This document shows, in pieces, positions 12,676-56,368 of a DNA stretch of 64,000 bases. The translations under genes and the position numbers were made by a program. Each line of letters opens with the position of its first letter. Positions within the stretch are counted from its first letter, which is position 1. The notes beneath the pieces were generated by a model that saw only the letters and a list, made by a program, of their open reading frames with translations, searched no databases and was not told where the DNA came from. The stretch is from Pseudomonadota bacterium (lineage in GTDB: Bacteria; Bdellovibrionota; Bdellovibrionia; Bdellovibrionales; JACTMU01): NCBI GenBank assembly GCA_014584465.1, contig JACTMU010000012.1, positions 95,333-159,332 on the forward strand, in the 5' to 3' direction.

Positions 12676-12694
12676 GAATTCCTTCTTCGAATTG

Positions 12695-13570: not shown

Positions 13571-13610
13571 AGCTAATGAGCAAAACACAGCTTGTTGACC
13601 ATTTGCAAGA

Positions 13611-14543: not shown

Positions 14544-14701
14544 CCGCTCTTCTCCTGCGAAGTCTCATGGTCGTGACGAAATAGATGGTCGGATCTGGTT
14601 GTCAAAGAAGTCTCGCTGGGTTACATTAAGAGTGGTGCGTGGTGGTCTTCATGGTTTTTAGCCTATTTCTAATTTCAGATCCGAGTTGAAGGGGAAGAGT
14701 T

Positions 14702-15838
14702 ATGTCTGAGGTCTATAGCGGGGCTATTGATAAGGGTTTGGAGGGTGTTGTTGCCTGTACGACCGGCATTTCCTCGATTGTGGATGCGACACTATGCTAT
14801 TGCGGCTACACCATTGAAGATTTAGCTGCAAACTCAACTTTTGAGGAGGTCGTATTTCTTCTGTGGAATAAGAGACTTCCTAATCGTAATGAGCTTGAAA
14901 AGTTCACTTCGGAATTAAGAACACTGCAGTTCTTAGATCCGCAGTTTGTCGAGCTACTTAAAAAACTTCCTGCTGAGAATGTTCATCCGATGTCCTGGCT
15001 TCGAACGGCCACCTCAATGCTGTCGCTTTGGGATCGTAACACGCAGTTGGATACTCCAGAGGGCCGCAAAAACGTAGCGATCAATCTTGTTGCTAAGATG
15101 GGACTTTTGGTCACGGCGTTTTCTCGAATGAGGGAGAAGAAGGAGGTTGTGGCTCCTAAAAAGGATAGGAGCACAGCATGGAACTTTCTCTATACGTTGA
15201 CGGGAGAGGAGCCCAGCGAATCTCTTGTAAAAGACTTTGATGTGTGTCTTGTTCTGCATGCAGACCACGAACTCAACTGTTCCGCATTTGCGGCGAGGGT
15301 GACCGCTTCGTCACTAAGCGACATCTACTCCTCGGTTGTGAGTGCCATAGGTGCCCTTAAAGGACCACTTCATGGAGGCGCCAATGAGCAGGTTATGAGG
15401 ATGCTCAAGGATAAGGTCAAAGAGACTTCGCTTGCTCCGACATGGGTTCGTCGTGCTTTAGATAACAAAGAGAAGATTATGGGATTTGGCCATCGTGTTT
15501 ACAAGAATGGCGATCCTCGGGCTAAGATTTTACGAGATATGAGCAAAAGACTTTGTTCGCAAATTGGGCAACCCCAATGGTATGAAATGTCCGACATCAT
15601 TGATCAGACGGTGCGAAACGAAAAAGGATTGTTGCCCAACGTCGACTTCTACTCGGCCTCGGTGTATTACAGCATGAAGATCCCACTTGATCTCTATACC
15701 CCCATTTTTGCGGTTTCTCGCGTATCTGGTTGGTTGGCCCATGCCTTTGAGCAATATGCGAACAATCGAATCTACAGACCAAGGGGCGAATGGACTGGAG
15801 CCACTGGTTTGAAATGGAAGCCCCTCTCCGAACGCTAG
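14702..15838 (+). CDS. gltA: citrate synthase
   Basis: 378 aa. Contains the signature 'GFGHRVYKNGDPRA' and 'LHADHELNCS'. Confidence 0.92.
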   Translation: MSEVYSGAIDKGLEGVVACTTGISSIVDATLCYCGYTIEDLAANSTFEEVVFLLWNKRLPNRNELEKFTSELRTLQFLDPQFVELLKKLPAENVHPMSWLRTATSMLSLWDRNTQLDTPEGRKNVAINLVAKMGLLVTAFSRMREKKEVVAPKKDRSTAWNFLYTLTGEEPSESLVKDFDVCLVLHADHELNCSAFAARVTASSLSDIYSSVVSAIGALKGPLHGGANEQVMRMLKDKVKETSLAPTWVRRALDNKEKIMGFGHRVYKNGDPRAKILRDMSKRLCSQIGQPQWYEMSDIIDQTVRNEKGLLPNVDFYSASVYYSMKIPLDLYTPIFAVSRVSGWLAHAFEQYANNRIYRPRGEWTGATGLKWKPLSER

Positions 15839-15853
15839 TCTCAATTTGAAGCA

Positions 15854-15910
15854 AAGGTGCCAGGCGTATTTTTCGGATGCTGTGCATCCGAAAAATACGC
15901 CTGGCACCTT
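15854..15910. terminator. 27-bp perfect hairpin with a 3-nt loop followed by a T-run (gltA terminator / palindromic repeat)
   Basis: AAGGTGCCAGGCGTATTTTTCGGATGC-TGT-GCATCCGAAAAATACGCCTGGCACCTT, followed by ATGTTTTTGGGCTTTT. Confidence 0.7.
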
Positions 15911-15943
15911 ATGTTTTTGGGCTTTTGTCCGATAAGATTGAGT

Positions 15944-16609
15944 ATGGTGCAGACACTGATCGTGACCCCAGATCAGCATAGATTTCAGGAGATCGAAGAG
16001 CTTCTCTCTTCTTTGGATCTGCAATTTGATCCTTTGATTACCGTCGAGCACCCCCTTCGACTTCCCGAAGGATACTACCGATACATACTGATAGATCAAA
16101 TGCTCTTTTCCCTTGAAAACATGTCGGAACTCATGGCCTTTCGGAAGCGCAATGAAGAGGTTCCACTTCTGTTCTTGGTAGACAAAGTTGAAAGCGCGAA
16201 CTTCGATTTTGTTCGAAGACTTGGGAACGCATTGATGTTGCAAAACCCTCTAGATCGCCAAGAATTGATCACGCTGACACTAAAAATGCTTTCGCACGAC
16301 CGGGTCTTTCATCGATTTCATAAACGCTTTTCCGTTGATCTGACAACCAATCTTGAGAACTTTGGAGATGGCAAAAAATCAAAAGCATATCTGAAGAACC
16401 TTTCTCAGGGCGGTGCCTTTGCGGTTGCCGACCGCACCTTTCGAACGGGAGATGTTGTATTTCTAAATATTACCTTAGATCAAATCAATAAACATCATCG
16501 GATGAATGCAAAAGTCGTTTGGACCGGTCGAAACGACTCAGGCGACAGCTGTGTCGGCTTACGTTTTGTAAGTGCCGAAGAGGTCTATCGAAATCTCCTT
16601 AAAATGTAA
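15944..16609 (+). CDS. PilZ-domain protein with degenerate receiver-like N-terminus
   Basis: I start it at ATG 15944 (MVQTLIVTPDQ...), because the ORF-track start at 15857 lies inside the hairpin. The C-terminus 'RFSVDL...LKNLSQGGAFAV...GDVVFLNITL' follows the PilZ pattern. Confidence 0.65.
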   Translation: MVQTLIVTPDQHRFQEIEELLSSLDLQFDPLITVEHPLRLPEGYYRYILIDQMLFSLENMSELMAFRKRNEEVPLLFLVDKVESANFDFVRRLGNALMLQNPLDRQELITLTLKMLSHDRVFHRFHKRFSVDLTTNLENFGDGKKSKAYLKNLSQGGAFAVADRTFRTGDVVFLNITLDQINKHHRMNAKVVWTGRNDSGDSCVGLRFVSAEEVYRNLLKM

Positions 16610-16737: not shown

Positions 16738-17145
16738 CTACTTTTGTTCGATGCTGATGGCAAACTTCTTAATTCCTGCACGCTTTACGGCATCGATGAC
16801 GGAGACAACCTGACCATGCGGGACCTCCTTATCGGCAGCGATGACAGCTTGCAGGTCGGGCTTTTCAGCCACTGCCTTCTCAGCATAGGATGCAAGCGAA
16901 TCTAGATCACTGGGAGCCCCATTGAGTTGGATGGTTCCATCGCGAGACATTGAGATTTGAAGTGAAGTCGGAAGGGTGGACTCTCCTGAAGAGGCCTCTG
17001 GGAGATTTACATTGATGCTCGGTTGCATAATCATCGGAGCCGTCACCATGAAAATGATCAGAACCACAAGAATGATGTCCACAAATGGAGTTACATTGAT
17101 TGTGGCTATTGGGTCATCAGCATCGCCACCTAAGGAAGCTGCCAT
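16738..17145 (-). CDS. exbD: ExbD/TolR biopolymer transport protein
   Basis: 'INVTPFVDIILVVLIIFMV' is the TM segment, followed by a periplasmic domain. ATG 17145 shares 1 nt with the exbB stop (TGATG). Confidence 0.85.
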   Translation of the reverse strand: MAASLGGDADDPIATINVTPFVDIILVVLIIFMVTAPMIMQPSINVNLPEASSGESTLPTSLQISMSRDGTIQLNGAPSDLDSLASYAEKAVAEKPDLQAVIAADKEVPHGQVVSVIDAVKRAGIKKFAISIEQK

Positions 17146-17774
17146 CACTTCCCCTTCTTTTTCGAGTATGCAAGGCAAAGCTCTCTCACGCTCTCAAGGC
17201 TTGTAAGGGACGATTTGACCTGTCTCTGAAAATAGTTGTAGGCGATGACTGCCGGGATAGCTACAAGAAGGCCCACTGCAGTGGCGACGAGGGCCTCTGC
17301 GATGCCGGCCATGACGACACGATTGTCCGCGGCTTGGCTGACGCTGAGATCGTTGAAGGCCTTCATGATTCCCAGAACCGTTCCCAAAAGCCCAATAAAC
17401 GGAGCATTTGATCCTACAGTTGCAAGAAAGTTGAGGTACCGTTCGAGGGGTGGTTTCTCTGTAAGAGCAAAGGAGGTAAGAAACTCTGAGAGTCCTTCAG
17501 AACCATTCTCCTCGATGTGCCGTAATCCGTACGCCAAAGCTTGACCCTCAAGTGAATCGCGATCTCGACTCAAATCTTCAATCTCTTTCAAGGAGTTGGA
17601 CCTGATGAGACTTTGGAGACGGACACGCATACTTTCACTCTGACGTTTTACGGTTCGAAGAGCAAAAAAGCGCTCAAGGATAATGCCAATGCTAAGGATA
17701 CTGAGAGCCAATAGAAACCAGAGGACAACCTCTGCGCCATTTTGGGCAACGGCAAAAATCTTCTCTGTCAACAT
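17145..17774 (-). CDS. exbB: ExbB/TolQ (MotA/TolQ/ExbB proton channel family)
   Basis: I trimmed it to ATG 17774 (MLTEKIF...). 'APFIGLLGTVLGIMKAF...IAEALVATAVGLLVAIPAVIAYNYF' is the family signature. Confidence 0.85.
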   Translation of the reverse strand: MLTEKIFAVAQNGAEVVLWFLLALSILSIGIILERFFALRTVKRQSESMRVRLQSLIRSNSLKEIEDLSRDRDSLEGQALAYGLRHIEENGSEGLSEFLTSFALTEKPPLERYLNFLATVGSNAPFIGLLGTVLGIMKAFNDLSVSQAADNRVVMAGIAEALVATAVGLLVAIPAVIAYNYFQRQVKSSLTSLESVRELCLAYSKKKGK

Positions 17775-17946
17775 GTCACACTCCTCAAGATCTCTCGGTT
17801 CAGTATGATTATCGCTATGATCCCACCCAATGGTCAACCCAGGAGTGGTGGTTTCACCATTCAGTCCCGAAGGTAATGAAATGACGCTTGGTCCAGGTCC
17901 GGTTGTTCTTGCATCGCGCAGGACTCCTTTGGCAAAATCATCTTTC

Positions 17947-19764
17947 ATGAAAAGAATTGTTACCTCGATTTTGTCGCTCATCCTTGTCTGTTGCAAAAGT
18001 GGACATGAGGAGCGCCCATCTGTTTTGGTGATCGCCGTTGATATGCTTCCTCTCTCTTCGATCGCGTGTGAAACTGAGTCACAGGGGCAAAACAAAAGAT
18101 CAGGATTTCAGGTCTTTTGTCAGGACTCAGTTCGATTCACTCATGCCTACACGACCTCAACGATGTCCCAATCTGCATTGACCTCCATACTTACGTCGAG
18201 ATATCCACATGAACATGGTGTGTGGCACAATGGGAATCAATTTCTACCGTCGCAGGTCGAAACCGTTACAGAGGTGGCAACAAAGAGCGGATATCGAACA
18301 CTCTTTTTTTCCGGAGGACCTCCTATTTGGCGCAAGTCCGGGCTAAGTCAGGGCTTTGAAACTTTTGACGATAACATTTCTGTGAGCACCGCACTCTACT
18401 ATCGTCCAGTTCTGGAGACATTTGATCTTTTCCTAGATAGCCTCCGCAAAGGTGTGTCCAAGGATGTTCCGTTTTTTTCTCTGATCACCGTTCCAGATCT
18501 TCAATTTTCTCATTTTCCGACGAAGGACAACTTTGGAATTCAACGCCCAAGATCTTACCAGGGGCAATTGGATGAACTCGATGAATCACTTTACTATCTG
18601 ATTGAGGAGCTCAAGCAGTCGGATTACTGGAACTCTTCGTATGTTATCTTGACGGGTTTAACAGGTCGACCAAGTCAGGACAGTCCTGGCGATCTGACGG
18701 GATACAATCTCTTTGCAGACAACACGCTCATCTCCTTGTACATTAAACCTCCGCGCAAAAAACGAGATCTGGGCTTACAGTGGAAGATCGATAAGAACGT
18801 GAGCTTGGTGGATCTTGGTGCAACACTGTTTGACATTGTGGAGGCTCCTGTTCCTAAGCCTCCATCAAGGAGCATTGCCGTCGTATCTCTGCTACCTTCT
18901 GTTCTAAAGATGGAAACGGATTGGGATGAGTCTCGTCTCATTGTCATTGAATCGGCATGGGCGCAATGGCACCAAATTGGAGGGAGTCGATTTGCCGTAA
19001 GAAAGAACAACCTCCTGTTTCTCTGTGATCAAGATATGAAAGCCTACAATACGCTCATAGATCGCCTCGAGCTCAACCCGCTTTCACTTCAGGATCCATA
19101 CATTCGCCAAAATCTAGATGAGGTTCAATTCTTTCTTGACGAGAAGGGGTTTATCAAGTGGAAAGCGATATCAGATGTCACAGTGGACAAAGTGGTTCTC
19201 GGAGCATCGCTTTTTGATGAGACGGATGGACATGCAGCCATCATCAAAGAGATCCGATTGCTTCTAAAGAAAATGCCGTGGGATTCAGACCTCCTGAACT
19301 GGTGGGCCTATTTGGCGATCAAAAACAGAGATTGGAAGTCCCTTCGAGAAGTTGGTGAAATGGCCGCAAGGCCGATATGGACCTATGTTGCTCGACGAAA
19401 CCTCGGTGAAGAGCATGCCAAAATGCCAATGGATGCCTGTCTCAAGCTTCTCAATCGTAAAGTGCCTCGTCTGTCGAACATAGAAACAAAACAGTGCTCA
19501 GATCGTCTATTTTTAGATTTTGTAACATGGATCAAGCAAGATCCAAATAGCGATCAGGAGGTTCGATATCAGGAGGATTTCATAAAGTCCTATTCTGATC
19601 ATCTTATCACAAAGAACCTATCGCTGCTCAATCTCTCCTTAAATTTAATGTGGGACATCCCACTGGATTCATTTTATCCTACACGAACAGAAATGGTCTT
19701 AAATCTTCCTCGTTTCAAAAAATATCGCCGAATTATAGACAAGAGGATACAAAGCACGTTCTGA
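17947..19764 (+). CDS. sulfatase/alkaline-phosphatase-superfamily lipoprotein
   Basis: I start it at ATG 17947 (MKRIVTSILSLILVCC...). 'VLVIAVDML' and 'YTTSTMSQSALTSILTSRYPHEHG' are sulfatase-like N-domain motifs. The C-terminal ~300 aa are unrecognised. Confidence 0.6.
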   Translation: MKRIVTSILSLILVCCKSGHEERPSVLVIAVDMLPLSSIACETESQGQNKRSGFQVFCQDSVRFTHAYTTSTMSQSALTSILTSRYPHEHGVWHNGNQFLPSQVETVTEVATKSGYRTLFFSGGPPIWRKSGLSQGFETFDDNISVSTALYYRPVLETFDLFLDSLRKGVSKDVPFFSLITVPDLQFSHFPTKDNFGIQRPRSYQGQLDELDESLYYLIEELKQSDYWNSSYVILTGLTGRPSQDSPGDLTGYNLFADNTLISLYIKPPRKKRDLGLQWKIDKNVSLVDLGATLFDIVEAPVPKPPSRSIAVVSLLPSVLKMETDWDESRLIVIESAWAQWHQIGGSRFAVRKNNLLFLCDQDMKAYNTLIDRLELNPLSLQDPYIRQNLDEVQFFLDEKGFIKWKAISDVTVDKVVLGASLFDETDGHAAIIKEIRLLLKKMPWDSDLLNWWAYLAIKNRDWKSLREVGEMAARPIWTYVARRNLGEEHAKMPMDACLKLLNRKVPRLSNIETKQCSDRLFLDFVTWIKQDPNSDQEVRYQEDFIKSYSDHLITKNLSLLNLSLNLMWDIPLDSFYPTRTEMVLNLPRFKKYRRIIDKRIQSTF

Positions 19765-19803: not shown

Positions 19804-20472
19804 CTAGAACTCGATAAGGCCGAGCCAAAATGGGAGATCTGCATCATCAGAAGAGAGCACTTGGCTTATGGAATCAAGGTTTCCTGGGCAGTTGAAAAAA
19901 GAGACGGGCACTGTGGAGCGGGAAAGTAGGGCAATCTTGTCGCTCTTGCGGGGGCGAAATGAGTTTAAGATAAGGTTTGCGGAGGTGTCGACGCCAATAA
20001 GATCGCGTGGAAGAGGTGGCAGGAGTTTCGTTTCAGAACTCAATTCAAGAGAGAAATCAATCGAGCTACCTAGAGGAACAGGCGTTGTGCAGTCTCGAAA
20101 CAAGAAAAGTTGCGGATGACCGACTTGAACCCACTGAAGTTCCTTCGAAACCAAGCTGCAGACAAAGAGTTCAAGACCCGAACGATACTCATGTGAGTTG
20201 ACTCTTTGATAGAGAGTTTCGTTTGCAAGCAGAACCGAAGTTCGAAGATTGTTGAGGGTTGTGTTAAGACAGGAGAGCTTCCCAAATGGTGAAGTAAGTT
20301 CTCCATCATCGTTGGCAGAAAGATAATAGTCAGCTATAATTTGGATTGCCTCGGTTGCGGTCTTTCTTAGACCCCAAGGTGTTGCGACAATGAGTAAGTT
20401 AGAGGAATCAAGAAAGATCTCCGGCCTCGGACGAAAAAAGACACCACCAAAAGATCGCTCTTGAATTTTCAT
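19804..20472 (-). CDS. degenerate PP2C/SpoIIE-like protein (tentative), last gene of the FHA operon
   Basis: 222 aa. 'LQWVQVGHPQLFLFRD' and 'LPPLPRDLIGVD...SDKIALLSRS' echo the SpoIIE-domain pattern, but I do not see the metal-binding Asp motifs. ATG 20472 overlaps the upstream TGA (ATGA). Confidence 0.35.
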   Translation of the reverse strand: MKIQERSFGGVFFRPRPEIFLDSSNLLIVATPWGLRKTATEAIQIIADYYLSANDDGELTSPFGKLSCLNTTLNNLRTSVLLANETLYQRVNSHEYRSGLELFVCSLVSKELQWVQVGHPQLFLFRDCTTPVPLGSSIDFSLELSSETKLLPPLPRDLIGVDTSANLILNSFRPRKSDKIALLSRSTVPVSFFNCPGNLDSISQVLSSDDADLPFWLGLIEF

Positions 20473-22406
20473 TTCACACCATAGAGGGAAAGTTTCTTCT
20501 TTGCCTTGTTGTAGTAGTCGCCAGTCTCTAGATCGAGGTCTTTGATTTTCTTCCAGATCGTCTTTGCTTCATCCACATTCCCGATGCTCTCCTGTAGAAT
20601 GCTGTCTTCGTAAAACTCCTTTAGAATAATATTGAGTTTTGATGAGGACTGACTTCGAATCTCGAGGGCCTTTTTTTGGTTAGAGTCAACTTTTAGAACG
20701 TCATCTGCTGCAATGATTGCTTCCTTAAGCTGTCCCTTCTCGAAATAGGATTGTGCAGAACTTAGACCTTCAGAAATGCGATTTTCCAAGAGAGAATCTA
20801 TTGAGGCAATATGGCGTTTAGCTCTTGCTTTGTATCCGCCTGCATCGGGAATCTGAGATCGAATGTATTTTGAAAATGCAGAGCGGGCCTCATGATACTT
20901 TTGTGCTTCGAGAAGATTCTCTGCTGATTGAAATTCACGTTTAGATTGAATGAGTTGTTCTTGGCGATTGCGTTCATTCATCTCTGCCAATCGAATCTTT
21001 TCAAGATTCATCTCAACCGTTTCTAGAATGTGGCTGGCTTCGATGTTTCCTGGATCTTTCTCAAGAACTAAAGAGAGACAGGATTCAATCTCCTCGAGGG
21101 ATCTAGTTGAGGAGGCCATTGACTTGCACTTGCTTAGGACTTCATTCATTTCGATACGCAACCGTTCCTGTTCTTCTTTAGCTCGAAGATTTTGTGTCTG
21201 GAGCTGTCGTATCTCAATGGCTCGATTGCAATGTCCTTCGATTTCCCTAGAATCCTTATAGGACGCAATCAGCTGATGTATTTTGTCAATTTCTGACTTT
21301 GCAAGTTCAAATTTGCCCTGGGTGAAAAGCTTCTTAGCAAGCGCATGTGTATCCATTACAATCAACTGATCTTTTGCACTGAGGCGATCAAATGGATCTT
21401 TACTATCTTTGGCGATTTCTTTCTTTGGATTGGGTTCATTGAAAATTTGGTAGACAATGACACCAATAATCAAAACAATGACCAATGTGAGAACTCTGTC
21501 TTTTGCCCCTTTCTTTGTCTTTCGATGGCGAGGAGATGGGTAAGGAGCAATGGAATCATGTCTTACATTGGGGTATTCAATCCCCATGTTTGATGCTGAG
21601 TAAAAATCTTGTTGAGATTGGGCCAGCTGGTTGGATTGAGGGATGATCAACTGGTTGGCTGGAAGTTCAACTCGAGAATCAAAATTTAGATCTTTGATCT
21701 CAAATGAAAAAACATTGTCCAGTGTGGAGATCGTATCACCACTGGACATTCGAATGAGCTCATTAGGTTCGATCTTTGTTCCATTGAGATTTGTTCCATT
21801 GGAGCTTTCAAGGTCTTTTATATAATATTCTTCATTGACCTTGGATATTTCAAATTGCCGACGACTGATGCGATTGTCAGGGACTACAAGATCACAGTTT
21901 TTGTCACGTCCTACGGTCCATTGAGTTCCCTCAAGACGAATCGATCGTGAGGAAGATAGTTGAGGTGACGAGAGAGTCAATGTTGCCTGAAAAGCACGTG
22001 TTTGAATCGCAGTAAATTGATCAAGATCTTCAGCTGAGATGGGTTCTTGCTTGTTTTGAAAAGATTCTTGGTCTAAGGGAACAATTCCCACACTCTGGTG
22101 TGACACAGAAGGTTCCTCCTGAAAGAATTGAAACGAATAGGGAGGAATCGAGAAAATAAGTTCATGATCCAGATTTATGGACTCGATCCTTTCATTCTTA
22201 TGTTCGAGCGTGCCCAACTTTGAGGTCAATTCTGCAACCCAAAATGGATGGACAAAGTGAAGCTTTAAGTGTTGTCGTGAAATTCCAGGATAGTCCTTTA
22301 ATACGACATCACAGGCTTGACTTCGGCCAAAGAGATACTCCTTGTTTGGGTCGAGATCAATTTTGTGAACTGTCTCGCCATTGAGTAAGATGACAAGCGC
22401 GGCCAC
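20469..22406 (-). CDS. double-FHA-domain membrane protein with TPR/coiled-coil C-terminal region
   Basis: 645 aa with a GTG start. FHA1 is 'YLFGRSQACDVVLKDYPGISRQHLKL'. FHA2 is 'WTVGRDKNCDLVVPDNRISRRQFEI...SSNGTNLNGTKI'. The TM segment is 'VLTLVIVLIIGVIVYQIF'. Confidence 0.8.
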   Translation of the reverse strand: MAALVILLNGETVHKIDLDPNKEYLFGRSQACDVVLKDYPGISRQHLKLHFVHPFWVAELTSKLGTLEHKNERIESINLDHELIFSIPPYSFQFFQEEPSVSHQSVGIVPLDQESFQNKQEPISAEDLDQFTAIQTRAFQATLTLSSPQLSSSRSIRLEGTQWTVGRDKNCDLVVPDNRISRRQFEISKVNEEYYIKDLESSNGTNLNGTKIEPNELIRMSSGDTISTLDNVFSFEIKDLNFDSRVELPANQLIIPQSNQLAQSQQDFYSASNMGIEYPNVRHDSIAPYPSPRHRKTKKGAKDRVLTLVIVLIIGVIVYQIFNEPNPKKEIAKDSKDPFDRLSAKDQLIVMDTHALAKKLFTQGKFELAKSEIDKIHQLIASYKDSREIEGHCNRAIEIRQLQTQNLRAKEEQERLRIEMNEVLSKCKSMASSTRSLEEIESCLSLVLEKDPGNIEASHILETVEMNLEKIRLAEMNERNRQEQLIQSKREFQSAENLLEAQKYHEARSAFSKYIRSQIPDAGGYKARAKRHIASIDSLLENRISEGLSSAQSYFEKGQLKEAIIAADDVLKVDSNQKKALEIRSQSSSKLNIILKEFYEDSILQESIGNVDEAKTIWKKIKDLDLETGDYYNKAKKKLSLYGVK

Positions 22407-23425
22407 TAGTATCCTCCTTCAAGTCGAAGTTCGCACTCAATCTTCATTTGATGCGCTTCTTGAAAGATGGCACTTTGTTGATCATGAACCATAACGAGAA
22501 CATTTCGTAAATATGAGATACAGAAGTCAAATTTGTTTTGGTCGTGATACTGTCGACCTCGAATCATGTAGTATTGTATGAGTTCGTCACGTTTTTGCTT
22601 TGCCTTTTTTCGATAGACCTCTGCCATCTGGTGCTGAGGATAAAGATTGAGACATGCAGTAAAGAGCTCAATGGACTCATCATAGGCTCCATTTTGATAG
22701 GCCCTAAACCCTTGAGTATAGAGTGCATTGGCATCAAAATATTGGCGTGTATTTTTTCCTGTGTGAGCACGCTGCTGTTTGATGAGATCGATTTGAGAGC
22801 GAGTTGCCTCAGTCTCCCCTTCTTGCTGCTGCAGTGTTCGAATTGGAACTTCAGTTTTTGGATTTGGATGAGATGTAAAGAGCCATCCGGCCAAAGCAAC
22901 AATTCCGAGCAGAAGGAAGTAAAAGGTCGCTGAACTCTTCTTTTTTCTGACACGGACTTTTGGTGGATTCTGTGAATGAAGATCCATGCCGGGCGTTGCT
23001 GAGAAGACTTGTGGAGGGGGCATTGGCGCAAAACCGGTTTCAGGAAGAGGACTGGGAGGAGTGTGAACCTGTGCCGATGGAAATGGAGCAGGAACTTGAG
23101 GAGAAGATTCAAGTCCAAACCGAAGTTCAGTATCGCCTATTTGAATGATGGAGCCTTCATTGAGAAGGGTCTTCTTCACTCTCTTTCCGTCCACAACAAG
23201 TGGTACCTTTTCACTTAAGTTTGAGATTGTAATTCGATTTTGCTCAAAGTTGATGCGCGCTTGGTTGCGACTGCATTTCTTATCATTAAGAACGATCTCG
23301 CACTCTTTGGCTCGACCAATCACGAGGGGCCGATCATTTGGAAGCATGAGTTTCGTTCCTCGATCAGGTCCATTGACAATGATGATGTTGGGTTGAAGTT
23401 GAGCAAGGGTGAGGGCGTGACTCAT
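22406..23425 (-). CDS. FHA-domain membrane protein with Pro-rich linker and TPR-like C-terminus
   Basis: 339 aa. FHA is 'LVIGRAKECEIVLNDKKCSRNQARINF'. The TM segment is 'FYFLLLGIVALAGWLF'. Confidence 0.8.
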   Translation of the reverse strand: MSHALTLAQLQPNIIIVNGPDRGTKLMLPNDRPLVIGRAKECEIVLNDKKCSRNQARINFEQNRITISNLSEKVPLVVDGKRVKKTLLNEGSIIQIGDTELRFGLESSPQVPAPFPSAQVHTPPSPLPETGFAPMPPPQVFSATPGMDLHSQNPPKVRVRKKKSSATFYFLLLGIVALAGWLFTSHPNPKTEVPIRTLQQQEGETEATRSQIDLIKQQRAHTGKNTRQYFDANALYTQGFRAYQNGAYDESIELFTACLNLYPQHQMAEVYRKKAKQKRDELIQYYMIRGRQYHDQNKFDFCISYLRNVLVMVHDQQSAIFQEAHQMKIECELRLEGGY

Positions 23426-25014
23426 GAATACCCTCCAGCGACATCTTCAGCTGGATGAATCGTGATGATATAGTATGCAACACTGTGGTCACCAAATATG
23501 GCGTGAGCAAATATTTCATAGTTTGAGCCACTAAAATCTATAGAGTCAGAGGCTATCCCAGATGATTGTGACTCCAGGTAGAGGAGAAGATCAGAAACAT
23601 TTTGTTGCAAAGCCTGATCTGGCAAATCTTGGATGGTCATATTCACGAGCGATTGGGCGTTGATTCCCGTTATGGCCTCAAAGAGACTGTTGGCCCCAAT
23701 GATGGTTTGATCATTTGGAGAGATGGCAAGGGCGGCAGCTCCTAGAATTTGGAGAAGATTTTGGGCTTCAGCTCGCCGGTCATGGACCGCTGTAAGTGGC
23801 ATCTCATCTTGAGTTGGGCCTTGAGCCATTCGAGAAAGCGCTGTATTGATGTTGGAAATCAGGTTTTGAAGAGGAGCAAATTGAAACTTCATGGTGATCG
23901 TTTCTGTTTTATTTTTGAGCGCAGAATCCACATGACGATTGAGGCGAACGAAGGGATATTCAATCAATCGATAGAGAAAGTAGTGGGCCAAAAGCGCAAC
24001 GAGAACTGCCATGAACAAGGTTTGAAAAAAGAGACTCATCGTTCGCCCATCATCGATGGCAAGCGAACCCATGTCGTAGATGACAATCGCATAGGCAGCC
24101 ACCTCCTGAGTCTGACGCTCAGGACTGTAATAGGTGATGGGAACTGAGGCCCCGATGGTCGAATCATCAATTTGATCGACATAAACAACATCTTTTCGTC
24201 GTGCTTGAGCAATAAAGGGTTCGCTTGGAAAGGTTCCAGCAAGACGTGACGGAGCCAGCACACTTCCGTCTGCATTGGAAAGAATATAGAGGGATTTTAC
24301 TCCCTCTTCCATCTGTGCTTCTTGAGTGGTTAATGAGGAATCCAACTTTTGGAGTACAGCCCGTTCATTTCTTTCCGCCAGATTGGTCGCTATGGTGAGA
24401 GATCGTCTGCGGCTTTCAACTTCAATGCTGTTCTTTGAAATTCGAATCATTGGAATGACCGAGAGAGTTGAGACGCATACAACTAGAGCGAGTATGATGC
24501 CAAGAACCACATATTTGAGTTCCACAAGATCTGCAAGTTTGTAGACCCCTGGGAGCATAACACGCTCTACGTAGTATCTGAAAAACTTTGGAAGATCATG
24601 GATGGCCTGAATGCGAGGAGCTACATTTGGATTTTCAGAAGGCGAGGATGATGTCATCGATGTAGAAGGATGCGCATGAAGTTGATGAACAGAAGCAAGT
24701 GGTGGCGGTGTCTGAAGTGTTGCAATTGAGTGACGAATAAGGTCGAACATCTTGTCTCCGAGAGAGAAGCGATCTCCCTCCTTGAGAAGTTTGGAACGAA
24801 TCTTGGTTCCATTGACAAAAGTTCCATTGGTTGAGTTTCGATCGACAAGCACAACGCCTTTGGGTGAAGTTTCGATTTGGGCATGCGTCTTGGAGATTCC
24901 TGTTTCGTTGAAATGAAGGGTGCAGTTTTGGGCTCTGCCAATTGTGAGAGTGCCTGGTTTGAGCGGAATGATCTGTCCTCGTTGTTCACCTGAAAGGATT
25001 CTAATGGCCCACAT
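23422..25014 (-). CDS. FHA-domain transmembrane sensor with C-terminal PAS-like domain
   Basis: I start it at ATG 25014 (MWAIRILSGEQRGQ...). FHA is 'TIGRAQNCTLHFNETGISKTHAQI...STNGTFVNGTKI'. It has two hydrophobic segments flanking ~150 aa, and a PAS-like C-terminus. I see no enzymatic output domain. Confidence 0.7.
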   Translation of the reverse strand: MWAIRILSGEQRGQIIPLKPGTLTIGRAQNCTLHFNETGISKTHAQIETSPKGVVLVDRNSTNGTFVNGTKIRSKLLKEGDRFSLGDKMFDLIRHSIATLQTPPPLASVHQLHAHPSTSMTSSSPSENPNVAPRIQAIHDLPKFFRYYVERVMLPGVYKLADLVELKYVVLGIILALVVCVSTLSVIPMIRISKNSIEVESRRRSLTIATNLAERNERAVLQKLDSSLTTQEAQMEEGVKSLYILSNADGSVLAPSRLAGTFPSEPFIAQARRKDVVYVDQIDDSTIGASVPITYYSPERQTQEVAAYAIVIYDMGSLAIDDGRTMSLFFQTLFMAVLVALLAHYFLYRLIEYPFVRLNRHVDSALKNKTETITMKFQFAPLQNLISNINTALSRMAQGPTQDEMPLTAVHDRRAEAQNLLQILGAAALAISPNDQTIIGANSLFEAITGINAQSLVNMTIQDLPDQALQQNVSDLLLYLESQSSGIASDSIDFSGSNYEIFAHAIFGDHSVAYYIITIHPAEDVAGGYS

Positions 25015-25345
25015 AGAGCTGATCTCCTTTGCAGGTAGGAACACGCTTAAGAGTGCCACCAGGAAGTTCGAAGACAGACCTGGCTCTGAACAAAATGCGA
25101 GTCATGCGCCATGGCCTGATGTTTTCATAGGCTCGAACCACGATGAGATTTTCGTCAACAAATAGGGCATCAATTGCAAATTTCATAAAGCATGTATGGA
25201 TGCTGTTGCACTGAGAAATCCAAAGAGCGCTTTGGTCTCTCATATTTGACGTGCCAAGGAGCCCTTTCAGCCTGGAGTAGAAGGTCGAGGCCATGGTCAC
25301 GTTTTCTGCAAGAACTCTGTTTGTTGAGACGTTTGTAAGTTTCAT
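25001..25345 (-). CDS. DUF192 (COG1430) protein
   Basis: 114 aa. 'RLKGLLG...IHTCFMKFAIDALFVD...VFELPGGT' matches the DUF192 pattern as I recall it. Confidence 0.65.
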   Translation of the reverse strand: MKLTNVSTNRVLAENVTMASTFYSRLKGLLGTSNMRDQSALWISQCNSIHTCFMKFAIDALFVDENLIVVRAYENIRPWRMTRILFRARSVFELPGGTLKRVPTCKGDQLYVGH

Positions 25346-26268
25346 TATGGAGTTTTACCTCCGTAAAAGAATTGCAGAATCACAGGACCAAAGACCATGA
25401 TGAACACGGCGGGTATAATGAAAATCATGAGAGGAATTAGAATCATTTGCGAAGCTCGAGCCCCTGCTTTTTCTGCTCGTACAAATCGGTTCAGACGCAT
25501 TTGGATGCTTTGATCTTTAAGGACACCGGCAATGCCTGCTCCGGTGGCGTCGGCATCAATGAGCATTGTGACAAAACTTTGAATTTCTGTCATATCAAGG
25601 CGATGGGCAAGGGCAAGAAGGGCATCTTTTCGAGAGCTACCGAGCTTGAGATCCTTGAGGACCACGCTGAATTCATCTGCGAGTACACTCTCTTCGGCCT
25701 TATCGACGATCCTTTGAATGGAGCCAATGAAATCCAGTCCAGCCTCAGTTGATAAGGCAAGAAGGTCAATGAAAAATGGGAGGTCGATCTGCACCGAAAG
25801 CATTCTCTTTTTGCGTTGGGCTTTTGCATGCCATTTAGGCAACTGAAAACCAAGGAGTCCAACGACAAAGACAAGGGGCCAGGGATAGCCAAGCTCGAGG
25901 GCAAAATTGAGGATGAGCAGTACGATAGGAAAGATCACGCCCCAAAGGATCTGTAACCCTATGAACTCATCAACGTTGAGCTCACTGCCCAGTCCTGAAG
26001 TTAAGATCAGATGGTTGAGGCGTTCACGGTATTTGGGATTTTTGATGCGTGCTGCATGTTGAATTGTAAAGTTGTGAACAAGGGGACGGGAGAGCTCAAT
26101 GAGTTTGGATTTCGAGCGCACCGGTTCATTGCCGCTCGCCCAAGAGAGTGCTTTCACCTCTTGGTTTTCACGAAAGACGGTCGAGATGAAGATGTAGATC
26201 GCAAAACCCGCAAGCAGCAGTCCTGCAATAAGTAAGAAAAAGTCACTTCCCATTTGGATAGACTCCAT
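25345..26268 (-). CDS. tadC: type II secretion system F-family protein (TadB/TadC-like pilus platform protein)
   Basis: 307 aa. The T2SSF domain is 'LPFFIDLLALSTEAGLDFIGSIQRIV...LGSSRKDALLALAHRL...GVLKDQS...R...AEKAGARASQMILIPLMIFIIPAVF'. Confidence 0.8.
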   Translation of the reverse strand: MESIQMGSDFFLLIAGLLLAGFAIYIFISTVFRENQEVKALSWASGNEPVRSKSKLIELSRPLVHNFTIQHAARIKNPKYRERLNHLILTSGLGSELNVDEFIGLQILWGVIFPIVLLILNFALELGYPWPLVFVVGLLGFQLPKWHAKAQRKKRMLSVQIDLPFFIDLLALSTEAGLDFIGSIQRIVDKAEESVLADEFSVVLKDLKLGSSRKDALLALAHRLDMTEIQSFVTMLIDADATGAGIAGVLKDQSIQMRLNRFVRAEKAGARASQMILIPLMIFIIPAVFIMVFGPVILQFFYGGKTP

Positions 26269-29077: not shown

Positions 29078-29176
29078 TAGGGGCAGTCCGGTAATTCCAT
29101 TTTTGCCGATTTCTATAAGTTTTCCTTATACCTTCGTTGAGCCTCCTCGAGTTAGCGCCTCTGGCTAGCCCTTCGT
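29078..29176. mobile_element. MITE-like element, copy C (left half only)
   Basis: It matches copy A 1233..1326 with 1 mismatch and continues through CTTCGT as A does after its second 19-mer (1346..1351), so C carries one 19-mer. The match ends abruptly at 29176. The kinase stop codon (29165..29167) lies inside it. Confidence 0.85.
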
Positions 29177-31105
29177 AATCATTCGGACTTGGAGTTTTTC
29201 AGATTCTTTCTTGATGGCGTCATCTTCGTATTGGCTTGAGACTAATATAGATGAGTGCGAGATGTCCATTTTTTGGATCAGCTCCAAGCCATTTTCTGAT
29301 TGTCCTAATAACTCAAAGTCAACTAAGAAAAGGACATGGTCCTTGGCGTGAGTCTGGCACCAGATTTTGAAATCCGAACCAGAGGTAAAACTCAAAATAG
29401 GTACGCCTTGAATACGGTTTTTCCAAACTTGGTGGATCGATAGATCATCGTCTAATACGACCACAAGACTGTACTTTGACATATCTAACTGTTCTACGAA
29501 CCACGATGGAGAGTCCGCTCTTGGAAGATGAAGGTCAACAATGGTCCCCTGACCGGGTACGCTTTGAATGTTCAGTGTTCCTCCAATGTTCTCGATGGTT
29601 CTTCGCGCATGAAGAACTCCGATCCCAGATCCGCTTTGACTCTCTTTTTTTCCGAAAGATACAGGCATCTCTCCGAGTCTATCTAGAACATCTTTCTGAA
29701 TTCCAACACCGTTGTCTTGAACTCTAATGTGCACTTGATTCTTTGTGCCATTTACACGAACAACAATCTTTCCATGCCTATCTATAATTGCTTCAACCGA
29801 ATTGTTTATGAGATTGGACAGTGCTCGTTTAAATTCAACCTGATCAATCCTAGCAAAGCAACCATAGGATTGATTCAGATCAGAAGATATTTCAATGTCC
29901 ATTCGGTTTCGATATTGGACTCGTTTTTCAGAAATCAGCATGTCCACAAGAACGGGGATGAGTTCTGTTGTGGCAGTTGATTTTACAGATGCCGAAGTTT
30001 CCTTGTCACCTTGTTGAGTCAATTTTGCTTTACTCAAAAGTGTATTTGCTATGTCGTTGATTCGATTAGCTGCATTACGCAGGAGCAATCTTTTTTCTTC
30101 GGGGACCTGGTCAAGAGTATTGACAACCAAGGTAAGTGCAGAAAGTGGTGATCTTATGTCATGGGAAACCTGTCTTGCAGTTTGTTCCAAGAGCAAAACT
30201 TTCTCGGATTTTAGTTTTTGCAAATGAAGTTCGTGAAGATTTCTCTCTAATGTGTCAACGGCATTTTCAAGAATTCTAATTTCATTTTTTTCACCCTCCA
30301 AAGGCGAACTTTGAGCCTTATGCAGCACCTTGTTGGATAGATCCTCAATAGGTTTGACAACGAGATCTTTGAGTCTGTGAATTCCATAAACAACTGAAAG
30401 AGTCGTAACCAAGAAGATGCCGCCCAGCATTCCAAAAAAAGAGATATAACCGTTTTCCGAATCCTTAATGGTAATTTGAATCGAATCCACCTGTTCGTGA
30501 TTTTCAAACGAGCCGACAAAGATTTTGTTCTCAAATTGACTTTCCAAATCAGAAGTGGAAATTGCAACAAAAAGAACACCTACTGTTCTAGCATTAGGGC
30601 CCGACTGCTGTTGATCATCGAGACGCACAATCTTTTTGAGAATGAGAAATCCATTTACAGAGGAATAAGGAGCTCGCTCAGTGTCTCTTAACAAAACTTG
30701 TTCTAGGTCAACTGTGGAAACGTTTCCCAAATTTCCAGTTCGAATCAACTCTTGGTAATCCTTCGATACGAGCATCCAATACGTTTGTAATGATTGTTTC
30801 TGTACAAATTCTGTAATTCTGCCATAGACACGGTTTTCAAGAAATGGACGCATGACATCGGGTGCCAATAAAAAATCCGTGACTTCAGAAGATCGCAAAA
30901 AAAGCTCTGCATCGTTTTCTAAAAAAGTGAGCTGTCTCTGAATATCAGAAACAATTTGTCGGTTTTGAAATTCAACCATATTTTTGCGACGAGTTTCAAC
31001 ATTATAAATTAAATATCCAAAGACCAACGACGCCAAACTGATGGGAAGAATGCCAACAAAAAATTGAATGGATATAAATTCTTGTTTCAAAGTTCGTCTA
31101 TTCAT
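29165..31105 (-). CDS. hybrid sensor histidine kinase (2 TM, HisKA, HATPase, C-terminal receiver cut short)
   Basis: 646 aa. H-box 'QVSHDIRSPLSAL', N-box 'NLINNSVEAI' and G-boxes 'DNGVGI' and 'GSGIGV'. The receiver is 'LVVVLDDD...FLVDFEL...SILVSS...VRMITKG*'. Confidence 0.85.
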   Translation of the reverse strand: MNRRTLKQEFISIQFFVGILPISLASLVFGYLIYNVETRRKNMVEFQNRQIVSDIQRQLTFLENDAELFLRSSEVTDFLLAPDVMRPFLENRVYGRITEFVQKQSLQTYWMLVSKDYQELIRTGNLGNVSTVDLEQVLLRDTERAPYSSVNGFLILKKIVRLDDQQQSGPNARTVGVLFVAISTSDLESQFENKIFVGSFENHEQVDSIQITIKDSENGYISFFGMLGGIFLVTTLSVVYGIHRLKDLVVKPIEDLSNKVLHKAQSSPLEGEKNEIRILENAVDTLERNLHELHLQKLKSEKVLLLEQTARQVSHDIRSPLSALTLVVNTLDQVPEEKRLLLRNAANRINDIANTLLSKAKLTQQGDKETSASVKSTATTELIPVLVDMLISEKRVQYRNRMDIEISSDLNQSYGCFARIDQVEFKRALSNLINNSVEAIIDRHGKIVVRVNGTKNQVHIRVQDNGVGIQKDVLDRLGEMPVSFGKKESQSGSGIGVLHARRTIENIGGTLNIQSVPGQGTIVDLHLPRADSPSWFVEQLDMSKYSLVVVLDDDLSIHQVWKNRIQGVPILSFTSGSDFKIWCQTHAKDHVLFLVDFELLGQSENGLELIQKMDISHSSILVSSQYEDDAIKKESEKLQVRMITKG

Positions 31106-56278: not shown

Positions 56279-56368
56279 CCTTCCTACTCCTTTTTTGAAG
56301 TCCGGGAGGCTCAGTGCCCACTTTTGACCAGCGTTGAACCCCCGCGGAAACCAGTAACCCCAAAATTT

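Follow-up and report, generated by a model that had tools for sequence, protein, structure and literature searches.

Bdellovibrio bacteriovorus carries a group of six genes, Bd0470–Bd0475, that has been called the "tadC locus" and has partly been examined by genetics (PMC6561027, PMC12034629, bioRxiv 10.64898/2026.07.08.737194). Transposon phenotypes with complementation were reported for Bd0470 and Bd0474 and interpreted as those of a single operon: TadC (Bd0470) is required for prey attachment, and a Bd0474::tn mutant attaches to prey without subsequent rounding or killing (PMC6561027). The genes Bd0470–0475 have also been handled as one operon in work where Bd0474 bound the TPR/GYF protein Bd0075 in a two-hybrid assay (PMC12034629). 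A recent preprint described the tadC locus as separate, remarked on the neighbouring FHA/TPR/PAS genes, localized TadC-mCherry to the pole, at the invasive end of the cell, and reported failed attempts to delete tadC, which the authors read as essentiality (bioRxiv 10.64898/2026.07.08.737194). FHA proteins are also enriched in kil clusters, and one of them, MXAN_4649, was scored as PrgH-like (Seef 2021, PMC8460266).

A conserved six-gene tadC operon

Here, we analysed a 64-kb stretch of DNA (the window) from an uncultured Bdellovibrionales species. It contains six collinear open reading frames on the minus strand, which span positions 19804–26268 and overlap at every junction (25345–26268, 25001–25345, 23422–25059, 22406–23425, 20469–22406 and 19804–20472). 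They encode TadC, a DUF192 protein, three membrane proteins carrying four FHA domains, and a 222-aa protein. From 5' to 3' along the operon, the overlaps are TAATG, a 14-nt overlap between the DUF192 gene and the gene of FHA protein 1 (ATGTGGGCCATTAG), ATGA, TAGTG and ATGA. A sequence check reproduced these coordinates and all five overlaps exactly as given in an earlier note on this DNA. For FHA protein 1, the reading frame reaches 25059 and the real start is the ATG at 25014. The tadC gene probably starts at the ATG at 26253 rather than at 26268, with a GGAG 9 nt upstream, in agreement with the NCBI call (P0001).

The operon is the counterpart of the known tadC locus, and its arrangement is conserved, not new. 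In gene order, the six proteins are one-to-one best matches to Bd0470–Bd0475 (64, 52, 36, 28, 31 and 36% identity). The two loci (B. bacteriovorus CP102930.1; Duncan 2019; Abulude 2025; Tesseur 2026 preprint) agree in their genes and gene order, in the domain architectures of the products, in the junction overlaps and in the flanks, with Maf/YggS/ProC/DivIVA on one side and sulfatase/ExbD on the other. They differ in that the window belongs to another, uncultured species whose accessory proteins have strongly diverged. The earlier note could not map the operon onto a described Tad arrangement; the one-to-one correspondence largely amounts to the same gene order in a characterised, partly genetically tested Tad locus of a model organism.

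All six genes occurred in the same order, with conserved overlaps, in every one of the 52 Bdellovibrionales species genomes with a contig reaching far enough, an arrangement far beyond chance. The median gaps across the Bdellovibrionales loci were −1, −14, −4, −1 and −1. The DUF192 gene was found in 78 of 80 loci, and the remaining two contigs stop short of its position. What our analysis adds to the literature, where Bd0475 is "hypothetical", is the PP2C fold of this protein, the sensor-like layout of Bd0472 and how far the FHA domains keep their binding residues.

TadC, DUF192 and the relationship to Kil

The tadC product (25345–26253, minus strand; 302 aa from the ATG at 26253) is the inner-membrane platform protein of a Tad pilus (Pfam T2SSF, 1.3e-14). 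Sequence comparison places it nearer to Myxococcus-type KilH (39.7% identity, E 2e-47) than to KilG (28%, 1e-10). Around 95 aa at its N-terminus, which include an extra TM helix and a conserved motif, are absent from Myxococcota KilH according to alignment and TM prediction. Scanning the window ORFs of at least 150 aa (plus ExbD) against Pfam detected no Tad or type IV pilus gene nearby, as the earlier note had observed; a short Flp pilin gene would fall below this size limit. The label "orphan" nevertheless does not fit, as TadC of B. bacteriovorus, polar and reported as essential, belongs to a complete Tad machine that is otherwise encoded at separate loci.

As previously noted, tadC is followed by a DUF192 gene (25001–25345, minus strand; 114 aa; PF02643, 1.4e-15), whose start overlaps the tadC stop. 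Its product has no predicted signal peptide or TM helix. DUF192 also occurs in Firmicutes tad operons (PMC12786226).

On its 3' side, kil cluster 2 of M. xanthus ends in a similar order (KilB-KilG-KilH-MXAN_4649-MXAN_4648): the TadC orthologue KilH is directly followed by membrane proteins with N-terminal, cytoplasmic FHA domains. One of these FHA proteins carries TPR, and both systems serve predation. Among the Myxococcota-type loci sampled, kilH preceded a membrane FHA protein in three of four. In contrast to Kil, tadC of Bdellovibrionales is split from tadB/rcpC, the FHA proteins number three instead of two, and the Myxococcota loci lack the DUF192 and PP2C-fold proteins. Outside the FHA domain, the periplasmic parts of the Bdellovibrionales proteins did not significantly resemble the MXAN_4649 family, and the MXAN_4648-like protein gave a weak, TPR-level match (Prob 58%). 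The link to Kil is thus positional and architectural, short of proven orthology.

Architecture of the FHA proteins

Pfam matches support the earlier count of three membrane proteins with four FHA domains, two of them in the 645-aa protein, together with TPR. FHA protein 1 (Bd0472 orthologue; 23422–25014, minus strand; 530 aa; Pfam FHA 5.6e-17) combines a cytoplasmic FHA domain (24715–25014) with two TM helices (TM1, 24454–24510; TM2, 23986–24042) that enclose a periplasmic loop of ~137 aa (24043–24453). A cytoplasmic linker and a PAS-like domain (about 23440–23802) follow, and PAS families match 7–8 of 25 orthologues. The protein looks like the input module of a sensor kinase without the kinase (FHA–TM–periplasmic loop–TM–PAS).

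FHA protein 2 (Bd0473 orthologue; 22406–23425, minus strand; 339 aa; Pfam FHA 5.4e-14, TPR_2 4.5e-7) consists of a cytoplasmic FHA domain (23111–23392), a Pro-rich linker, one TM helix (22874–22930) with six K/R on its N-terminal side, and a periplasmic TPR domain (22409–22873). FHA protein 3 (Bd0474 orthologue; 20469–22406, minus strand; 645 aa) matches Pfam FHA in two stretches (3.3e-28), FHA-N (22107–22406) and FHA-C (21687–21986), followed by one TM helix (21438–21494) and a periplasmic helical/TPR domain of ~320 aa (20472–21437). The earlier note had placed TPR, coiled-coil and PAS-like parts outside the cytoplasm. This holds for TPR, while the PAS-like domain is cytoplasmic because it is located after the second TM helix of FHA protein 1.

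The variable linker between FHA-N and FHA-C contains a conserved [ED][KR]-T-x-[IV]-G island (22002–22019, Thr132). Just upstream of FHA-C, this Thr is 98% conserved in the Bd0474 family, preceded by an acidic residue (position −2) and followed by a hydrophobic one (+2). A conserved linker Thr upstream of the domain recalls the self-ligand FHA switches GarA/OdhI and Bdellovibrio DgcB, which are among the nearest solved FHAs. Unlike in those proteins, the Thr of the Bd0474 family is a candidate site only; it may be structural, as the modelled FHA-C domain has its N-terminal edge here (domain B begins at Met134; Abulude 2025).

A likely phospho-threonine-dependent module on the Tad platform

We consider it likely that the operon is the tadC locus of a predatory, Kil-like type IVc pilus machine of Bdellovibrionales, and that the FHA proteins form its phospho-Thr-dependent inner-membrane accessory module, with the kinase encoded elsewhere. 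The TadB partner of the TadC/KilH platform, the TadZA ATPase, the secretin and the pilins have their genes at other loci, and five accessory genes are tied to tadC by overlapping stop and start codons. In this model, the three FHA proteins would sit in the inner membrane beside the TadB/TadC platform, with TPR or sensor-like parts in the periplasm and FHA domains in the cytoplasm. There, the FHA domains would dock onto partners phosphorylated on Thr by a Ser/Thr kinase encoded elsewhere; these could be part of the Tad motor or platform, another FHA protein of the operon, or the conserved linker Thr of Bd0474. Prey contact could thereby license the machine for the transition from attachment to invasion. 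The general idea of a pThr-reading envelope module on a pilus platform had been put forward in the earlier note and fits a suspicion in the field (PMC8460266, PMC12428579, Tesseur 2026 preprint); its claims of an orphan, unmappable system did not survive.

All four FHA domains retain the Arg and Ser that hold phospho-threonine (GR and SxxH/Q conserved, 64–73 orthologues), so that docking onto Thr-phosphorylated partners would be expected. FHA1 (GR / SKxH / SxNGT, conservation of 90% or more across 73 orthologues) and FHA3-C match the canonical pattern in full. In FHA2, GR and SRxH are conserved among orthologues, with Gln in place of His in the window copy. Neither FHA2, in which the NG loop is degenerate, nor FHA3-N has a canonical Asn-Gly loop, and some of the domains may, judging from sequence, bind independently of phosphorylation. 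The nearest solved FHA structures in the PDB are true pThr binders, including Bdellovibrio DgcB.

The degenerate loops would also suit a purely structural role: similar to SctD (YscD/PrgH), the proteins would surround the Tad platform with a ring or scaffold in the inner membrane that does not depend on phosphorylation, their FHA domains would be protein–protein interfaces only, and no kinase would be involved. The PrgH-like score of MXAN_4649 points the same way, as does PF16697 (Yop-YscD_cpl), which matches all three proteins (1e-16 to 6e-23) as well as PF00498 does. PF16697 represents the cytoplasmic FHA-like domain of SctD/YscD, which is not known to have the pThr-binding residues. Like SctD of type III secretion systems, bitopic inner-membrane proteins with a cytoplasmic FHA-like and a periplasmic domain are here encoded with an export platform. 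However, the phosphate-binding residues are kept in the window proteins, no T3SS genes are present, and the SctD model TIGR02500 scored 35, 28 and 17 bits, far below its cut-off of 86. Moreover, the periplasmic parts are TPR or sensor-like, unlike ring-building motifs, and FHA1 has its two-TM layout with a cytoplasmic PAS domain. We therefore regard a purely structural role as rather unlikely.

Consistent with the earlier note, a six-frame scan of the 64-kb window revealed no Hanks-kinase motif. The motif was also absent within 10 kb of the operon in all 80 loci, one per species, in keeping with a kinase acting in trans. Neither the operon nor these 10-kb surroundings encode a kinase or an active phosphatase, which again would suit a structural role. 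For DgcB, a different FHA protein of Bdellovibrio, the suggested kinase is Bd3148 (PMC6733907); that it also serves this operon is speculation.

Alternatively, the five downstream genes could form a module that signals in a different envelope or cell-cycle process, such as divIVA-linked division or pole maturation (cf. actinobacterial FhaA/FhaB-PstP), and merely be co-transcribed with tadC. FhaB/FipA Rv0019c is indeed the best NCBIfam match of all three FHA proteins, but only over the FHA domain and at 47–63 bits against a cut-off of 125. The Maf-YggS-ProC-DivIVA cluster adjoins the operon in most loci, yet on the opposite strand, and FHA proteins are found after kilH also in Myxococcota loci without a neighbouring divIVA. 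The mycobacterial operon likewise pairs FHA genes with a PP2C-fold gene; against this, all junctions are stop/start overlaps with tadC at the head, and the defect of the Bd0474 mutant is specific to a predation stage, attachment without prey rounding (PMC6561027). Together, this makes a cell-cycle module highly improbable.

A PP2C-fold protein apparently lacking the catalytic aspartates

The last gene (Bd0475 orthologue; 19804–20472, minus strand) encodes a cytoplasmic protein of 222 aa that the earlier note had called PP2C-like. This holds for the fold: the best PDB matches by Foldseek of a confident AF2 model (pLDDT 91.8, pTM 0.90) were all PPM/PP2C phosphatases (E 1e-11 to 1e-8, TM 0.6–0.7), with tPphA, MspP, PstP, PppA and Stp1 at the top and the RssB PP2C-like domain (3f79) also among the matches. 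It gains nothing from family models, as no Pfam (including PP2C, SpoIIE and PP2C_2) or NCBIfam model matched, and the only PDB sequence match was Stp1 (E 0.58).

Activity as a phosphatase is unlikely. In an hhalign alignment to PstP, which was weak (E 0.07–0.09) but gave the same register twice, consistent with the fold match, I19, T31, H119 and R185 occupy the positions of the metal ligands D25, D38, D118 and D191. Across 292 family members, acidic residues occur at the D25, D38 and D191 positions in 0–1%, and conserved TPWG, S-x-S and FWLG stand in place of the DGxGG, DG and DN motifs. Since the metal-binding aspartates are apparently replaced family-wide, the protein is, on alignment grounds, probably a pseudophosphatase. 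Known PP2C-fold pseudophosphatases include the RssB C-terminal domain and TAB1. The window protein shares with this class the PP2C fold minus the metal ligands, and differs from it as a stand-alone protein without a receiver or other domain.

The T6SS threonine phosphorylation pathway (PpkA, PppA, Fha1/TagH) likewise encodes FHA and PP2C-fold proteins with a membrane nanomachine, and the proposed logic, in which contact triggers a pThr signal that recruits or activates the machine, would be the same. By analogy with PppA, which is among the best structural matches, the 222-aa protein might be an active phosphatase with a non-canonical site that resets FHA-bound phospho-sites. The family does retain the Arg aligned with the phosphate-binding R20 of PstP, and D56, E101 and D178 are invariant. 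Set against the lost ligands and motifs and the silent PP2C models, such activity appears improbable. The operon further differs from the T6SS pathway in lacking a kinase and T6SS genes, and the TagH model reached 56 bits against a cut-off of 120. Within the pThr-dependent module that we favour, the PP2C-fold protein would probably be a non-catalytic adaptor on one FHA protein or shield a phospho-site there. A hint at the partner comes from AlphaFold-Multimer, which paired Bd0475 with Bd0473, the counterpart of FHA protein 2 (ipTM 0.604; PMC12034629).

Identification of the operon as the tadC locus of a Tad/Kil-like machine

Six consecutive open reading frames (ORFs) were called on the minus strand of the window between positions 19804 and 26268. 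Pfam searches assigned T2SSF, DUF192, TPR and FHA domains to their products, with FHA domains in three proteins and two copies in the 645-aa protein. In the order of transcription, the genes encode a TadC-like platform protein, a DUF192 protein, three FHA proteins (FHA1, 530 aa; FHA2, 339 aa; FHA3, 645 aa) and a 222-aa protein. The junction overlaps reported in an earlier note are all present on the coding (minus) strand: TAATG between tadC and the DUF192 gene, 14 nt (ATGTGGGCCATTAG) between the DUF192 gene and FHA1, and ATGA, TAGTG and ATGA, in this order, at the remaining three junctions. The 14-nt overlap is preceded by an AAGGAG-like site, and FHA1 accordingly starts at 25014. The ATG at 26253 is the more likely start of tadC, because a GGAG motif lies 9 nt upstream, the public protein entry (P0001) starts there and the orthologues begin at the same residue.

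More than 2000 homologues of the window TadC-like protein were recovered, and the closest, which belong to Bdellovibrio and to Bdellovibrionales MAGs, share 63-72% identity with it; exact-sequence look-ups with the full ORF and with P0001 returned nothing on record. At the B. bacteriovorus locus (CP102930.1), the same six genes occur in the same order, with the domains and flanks of the window operon, and blastp recovered collinear one-to-one matches with 64, 52, 36, 28, 31 and 36% identity. The complete gene set of the tadC locus (TadC, DUF192, FHA, FHA-TPR, 2xFHA-TPR and a protein of ~225 aa) is thus present in the window, as judged from the B. bacteriovorus gene table and reciprocal blastp. 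So are its flanks, with the divergent genes Maf-YggS-ProC-DivIVA on one side and a sulfatase and ExbB/ExbD on the other. The operon is therefore the counterpart of B. bacteriovorus Bd0470-Bd0475, the tadC locus of a Tad/Kil-like machine, and the window adds one more orthologue to an operon already described. This overturns two statements of the earlier note, namely that the arrangement could not be mapped onto a described Tad system and that TadC is an orphan: TadC belongs to the Tad/Kil-like machine of Bdellovibrio, the parts of which are encoded apart.

Bd0470 was previously recognized as the orthologue of Myxococcus xanthus KilH, located apart from the main tad locus Bd0108-0119 (Seef et al., PMC8460266). 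[quoted passage not shown] The need for TadC in attachment and for the double-FHA protein after attachment is known solely for B. bacteriovorus (PMC6561027). Abulude et al. (PMC12034629) also handled Bd0470-0475 as a single operon and described Bd0474 as having two cytoplasmic FHA domains and an extracytoplasmic TPR region; its interaction with Bd0075 was confirmed by two-hybrid assay, and an interaction between Bd0473 and Bd0475 was predicted (ipTM 0.604). The name "tadC locus" was given by Tesseur et al. in a 2026 preprint (bioRxiv 10.64898/2026.07.08.737194), in which attempts to delete tadC were unsuccessful, taken by the authors as essentiality, TadC-mCherry localized to the invasive pole, and the adjacent FHA/TPR/PAS genes were mentioned without being studied. 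The main text of the RomR proximity-labelling paper names no FHA, Tad or Bd047x protein.

Conservation across Bdellovibrionales

A scan of one genome per species with the TadC alignment yielded 568 TadC relatives, the best 80 of which all belong to Bdellovibrionales. We called ORFs at these 80 loci and assigned them by blastp. In 52 of them, tadC is followed by 6.2 kb or more of sequence, and 51 of these 52 informative loci contained all six genes in order. In the single exception (L063), the FHA-TM-TPR gene was present too, slightly below the coverage filter. Median intergenic distances were -1, -14, -4, -1 and -1 nt, so the overlaps themselves are conserved, including the unusual one of 14 nt. 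That the six genes form one unit is thus borne out in the informative Bdellovibrionales loci among the best 80 of the 568 TadC relatives. The complete flank pattern was found in 27 loci, the others being cut by contig ends. A defence system or mobile element was rejected in view of the housekeeping flanks and of synteny that is stable across species.

The likely tadC start at 26253 (minus) lies only ~29 bp from the start of the divergent maf at 26283 (plus), so the promoters of tadC and maf must each be located inside the coding sequence of the neighbour. The spacing in B. bacteriovorus is similarly tight (28 bp).

Comparison with the Kil system of Myxococcota

A fragment of M. xanthus KilH, taken from a supplementary supermatrix (Seef et al.), was used to recover Myxococcota KilH proteins together with their contigs; an exact-sequence look-up of Stigmatella KilH gave nothing on record. 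The window TadC was 39.7% identical to KilH (E 2e-47) versus 28% to KilG (E 1e-10), and by these comparisons it is an orthologue of KilH, not KilG. In one Myxococcus-like locus (L002) and two loci from "deltaproteobacterial" MAGs (L083, L085), RcpC/KilB, KilG and KilH, in this order, are followed by an FHA-TM-periplasmic protein of 417-470 aa, encoded directly after kilH (L002 10740-12152, L083 8663-9916, L085 8736-10136); the FHA gene is absent from a fourth locus (L084). The periplasmic parts of these post-KilH proteins match each other with E values of 1e-16 to 1e-36. In L002, a fragmented FHA/coiled-coil gene comes next, and the two genes match MXAN_4649 and MXAN_4648 in the table of Seef et al. 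(PMC8460266). The MXAN_4649-like family is uncharacterized in the Kil literature consulted.

The window FHA proteins share with the MXAN_4649 family their position and the N-terminal FHA/TM layout, with sequence similarity confined to the FHA domain; in profile comparison, the TPR region of FHA3 matched the MXAN_4648-like protein weakly (Prob 58%). A tadC/kilH gene with membrane FHA proteins encoded behind it thus appears common to the predatory Tad systems of both groups. The genes kilG (tadB) and kilB (rcpC) adjoin kilH in the three Myxococcota-type loci and not the window tadC; no second T2SSF or RcpC gene was found in the window, nor upstream of tadC in the 80 loci. Compared with the Myxococcota Kil arrangement, that of Bdellovibrionales is expanded, separated from tadB, and the sole carrier of DUF192 and the PP2C-fold gene.

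Alternatively, the accessory genes could be an unrelated signalling module that only shares its transcript with tadC. Set against the overlap at every junction, the FHA genes that follow kilH in Myxococcota and the predation defect of Bd0474 mutants, we regard this as very improbable. We favour instead that the FHA proteins would serve the TadB/TadC platform as accessory subunits or regulators in the inner membrane.

Residues 1-95 of the Bdellovibrionales TadC (window 25969-26253) form an N-terminal extension that is not found in Myxococcota KilH. It comprises an extra TM helix and the conserved sequence SWASGDEP..SKS..SRPLVHxFTLQHA, and could be a lineage-specific docking site for accessory proteins. 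A sequence search of TadC against PDB chains produced no match.

On L002 (ENA contig_90565), the regions 12613-14124 and 16836-19381 hold several fragmented genes, among them those for the MXAN_4648-like FHA/TPR protein, polyprenyl synthase and DXP synthase. The broken genes are probably frameshift errors of long-read assembly, and gene lengths on this contig are therefore unreliable.

Topology and apparent phospho-threonine competence of the FHA proteins

Topology was assigned from hydropathy together with the positive-inside rule. In FHA1, two TM helices (aa 169-187 and 325-343) enclose a periplasmic loop of ~137 aa and are followed by a cytoplasmic C-terminal part made up of a linker and a PAS-like domain; PAS families matched 7-8 of 25 FHA1 orthologues, with a best E of 1.7e-5. 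Given the two TM helices and the PAS domain, FHA1 resembles a sensor-kinase input half in which FHA replaces the kinase. A single-sequence AF2 model of FHA1 was too low in confidence for use (pLDDT 40.6). A single TM helix was assigned to FHA2 and likewise to FHA3, which places their FHA domains in the cytoplasm and the TPR/helical parts outside.

The phosphate-binding Gly-Arg and Ser-x-x-His/Gln residues are kept in all four FHA domains (64-73 orthologues). The G-R, S-x-x-H and N-G loops of FHA1 are fully canonical, and the C-terminal domain of FHA3 is canonical apart from Gln instead of His; FHA2 and the N-terminal domain of FHA3 keep GR and SRxH and lack the Asn-Gly loop. The nearest solved relatives of the FHA1 profile are Ki-67, FhaA, GarA/OdhI, Rv1747 and Bdellovibrio DgcB, all true phospho-threonine readers. 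From these motifs, the FHA domains of the operon look competent for phospho-threonine binding.

NCBIfam matches on the operon, to FhaB, TagH, SctD and GltG, were confined to the FHA regions and all below threshold. The type III secretion protein SctD (YscD/PrgH) was rejected, as TIGR02500, for which the cut-off is 86 bits, scored 35, 28 and 17 bits, in the FHA region only; the window contains no T3SS genes. TagH/Fha of type VI secretion with PpkA/PppA was likewise discarded (TIGR03354, cut-off 120 bits, scores of 56 and 28 bits), and neither T6SS genes nor an adjacent Hanks kinase were found at the operon. A phospho-independent, SctD-like scaffold built from the FHA proteins would accord with their membrane layout and the loss of the Asn-Gly loop in two of the domains; with the phosphate-binding residues kept in all four, we consider it rather unlikely, and phospho-threonine reading remains our working interpretation.

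The linker between the two FHA domains of FHA3 is hypervariable and rich in indels except for an island, [ED][KR]-T-x-[IV]-G, in which the Thr is 98% conserved (aa 130-135; window 22002-22019, minus strand). In B. bacteriovorus Bd0474 the motif is EKT(M/V)IG, with Thr134 in CP102930.1. The island recalls the self-ligand tails of GarA, OdhI and DgcB. Its Thr is either a candidate phospho-acceptor or a structural edge of the C-terminal FHA domain, the latter because it lies at the modelled edge of that domain.

A predicted pseudophosphatase as the sixth protein

The 222-aa protein has no TM helix by hydropathy and matched no Pfam or NCBIfam model, including the PP2C, SpoIIE and PP2C_2 models. 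Its family comprises ~480 clusters at 50% identity, all ~225 aa long, and the few named members are all Bdellovibrionota. An AF2 model built from 30 homologues reached a pLDDT of 91.8 and a pTM of 0.90. The top Foldseek matches in the PDB were all PPM/PP2C phosphatases (tPphA, MspP, PstP, the T6SS regulator PppA, Stp1, SpoIIE and RssB), with a probability of 1.00, E values down to 1e-11 and TM scores of 0.6-0.7 to tPphA, MspP, PstP and PppA. A sequence-profile search of the PDB gave Stp1 as the sole match (E 0.58). The model indicates that the 222-aa protein has a PP2C fold.

For the active site, we used the catalytic domain of PstP (100% identical to 2cm1_A) as reference. Local hhalign of two different family alignments agreed in register, spanning 172 and 195 columns, at weak significance (E 0.09 and 0.07). 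In this register, R14 lies opposite the phosphate-binding R20 of PstP, the metal ligands D25, D38, D118 and D191 lie opposite I19, T31, H119 and R185, and the C-terminal DN motif (D229) is replaced by FWLG. Acidic residues occupy the D25, D38 and D191 positions in only 0-1% of 292 family members. The PP2C-like call of the earlier note is thus supported as to the fold, and the metal-binding aspartates are probably lost. The protein is probably catalytically dead, a pseudophosphatase, although the alignment to PstP is of low significance. The retained arginine and the fold itself would suit an active, non-canonical phosphatase, which the replaced metal ligands make improbable in our view. As a pseudophosphatase, the protein may serve as an adaptor or phospho-site shield.

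A possible phospho-threonine checkpoint on the Tad machine

The Tad/Kil machine is central to the switch of predatory bacteria from prey contact to invasion and killing, and the operon holds the best-conserved candidate regulators physically tied to it. Because predation by Bd0474 mutants stops after attachment, the most likely role of the module is to license the post-attachment step. We tentatively propose that the five accessory proteins constitute a phospho-threonine checkpoint through which contact with prey would move the Tad machine from attachment to invasion, a reading we hold as possible rather than probable. Phosphorylation of a Thr on a Tad or FHA component would come from a kinase encoded at another locus; one candidate site is the 98%-conserved Thr just upstream of the second FHA domain in the Bd0474 family. 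Such marks would be recognized by the four FHA domains. The pseudophosphatase with the PP2C fold would shield the phospho-site by binding it, or compete for it, without hydrolysis, and the sensor-like FHA-TM-loop-TM-PAS protein would give periplasmic input. A prey-contact kinase with several substrates was proposed in the DgcB study, with Bd3148 as the named candidate (PMC6733907). None of the 80 loci has an ORF with a Hanks-kinase motif within 10 kb, and a six-frame scan of the 64-kb window agrees with the earlier note in finding none.

If true, this checkpoint would be the first defined regulatory circuit of a type IVc (Tad) pilus that operates through Ser/Thr phosphorylation and a pseudoenzyme. 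Hypotheses for B. bacteriovorus and M. xanthus are sharpened by the invariant gene set in the sampled Bdellovibrionales, the apparent FHA competence and a last gene for a probably inactive PP2C-fold protein, and the mechanism of the FHA proteins has become more testable. The new annotation (pseudophosphatase fold, FHA competence, sensor-like FHA1 and conserved linker Thr) may be useful to work in model organisms.

The DUF192 protein and the genomic surroundings

The DUF192 protein of the operon has no TM helix by hydropathy, and a sequence search against PDB chains gave no match. A DUF192 gene also lies 6 kb downstream of tadB-tadC in L084, a deltaproteobacterial MAG locus (14689-15189), and DUF192 occurs inside the tad operons of the Firmicutes Bulleidia and Helcococcus (PMC12786226). 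Its presence near Tad genes in unrelated lineages hints at an unrecognized, recurrent Tad-associated role.

Pfam was run on the window ORFs of at least 150 aa, plus ExbD, a scope that a short Flp pilin gene would escape, and revealed no other Tad or T4P genes. The other scanned ORFs are mostly housekeeping genes (MotA/B, Dus, prenyl enzymes, citrate synthase, a PilZ protein, ExbD, the sulfatase, Maf-YggS-ProC-DivIVA, histidine kinases, TopA, Tsp, tRNA synthetases and Lgt/LspA), and a few lack a Pfam match. Beside divIVA, the stretch 29165-32102 (minus) carries a gene for a HisKA/HATPase histidine kinase of 646 aa and, with its stop overlapped by the kinase start, an upstream gene for a 334-aa protein without Pfam match; this pair is not at the corresponding position in B. 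bacteriovorus. Two further stretches of the window are of note, 15857-16609 and 54740-58225, with, farther off, a sigma-54 activator of the NtrC type alongside a CHASE2 histidine kinase.
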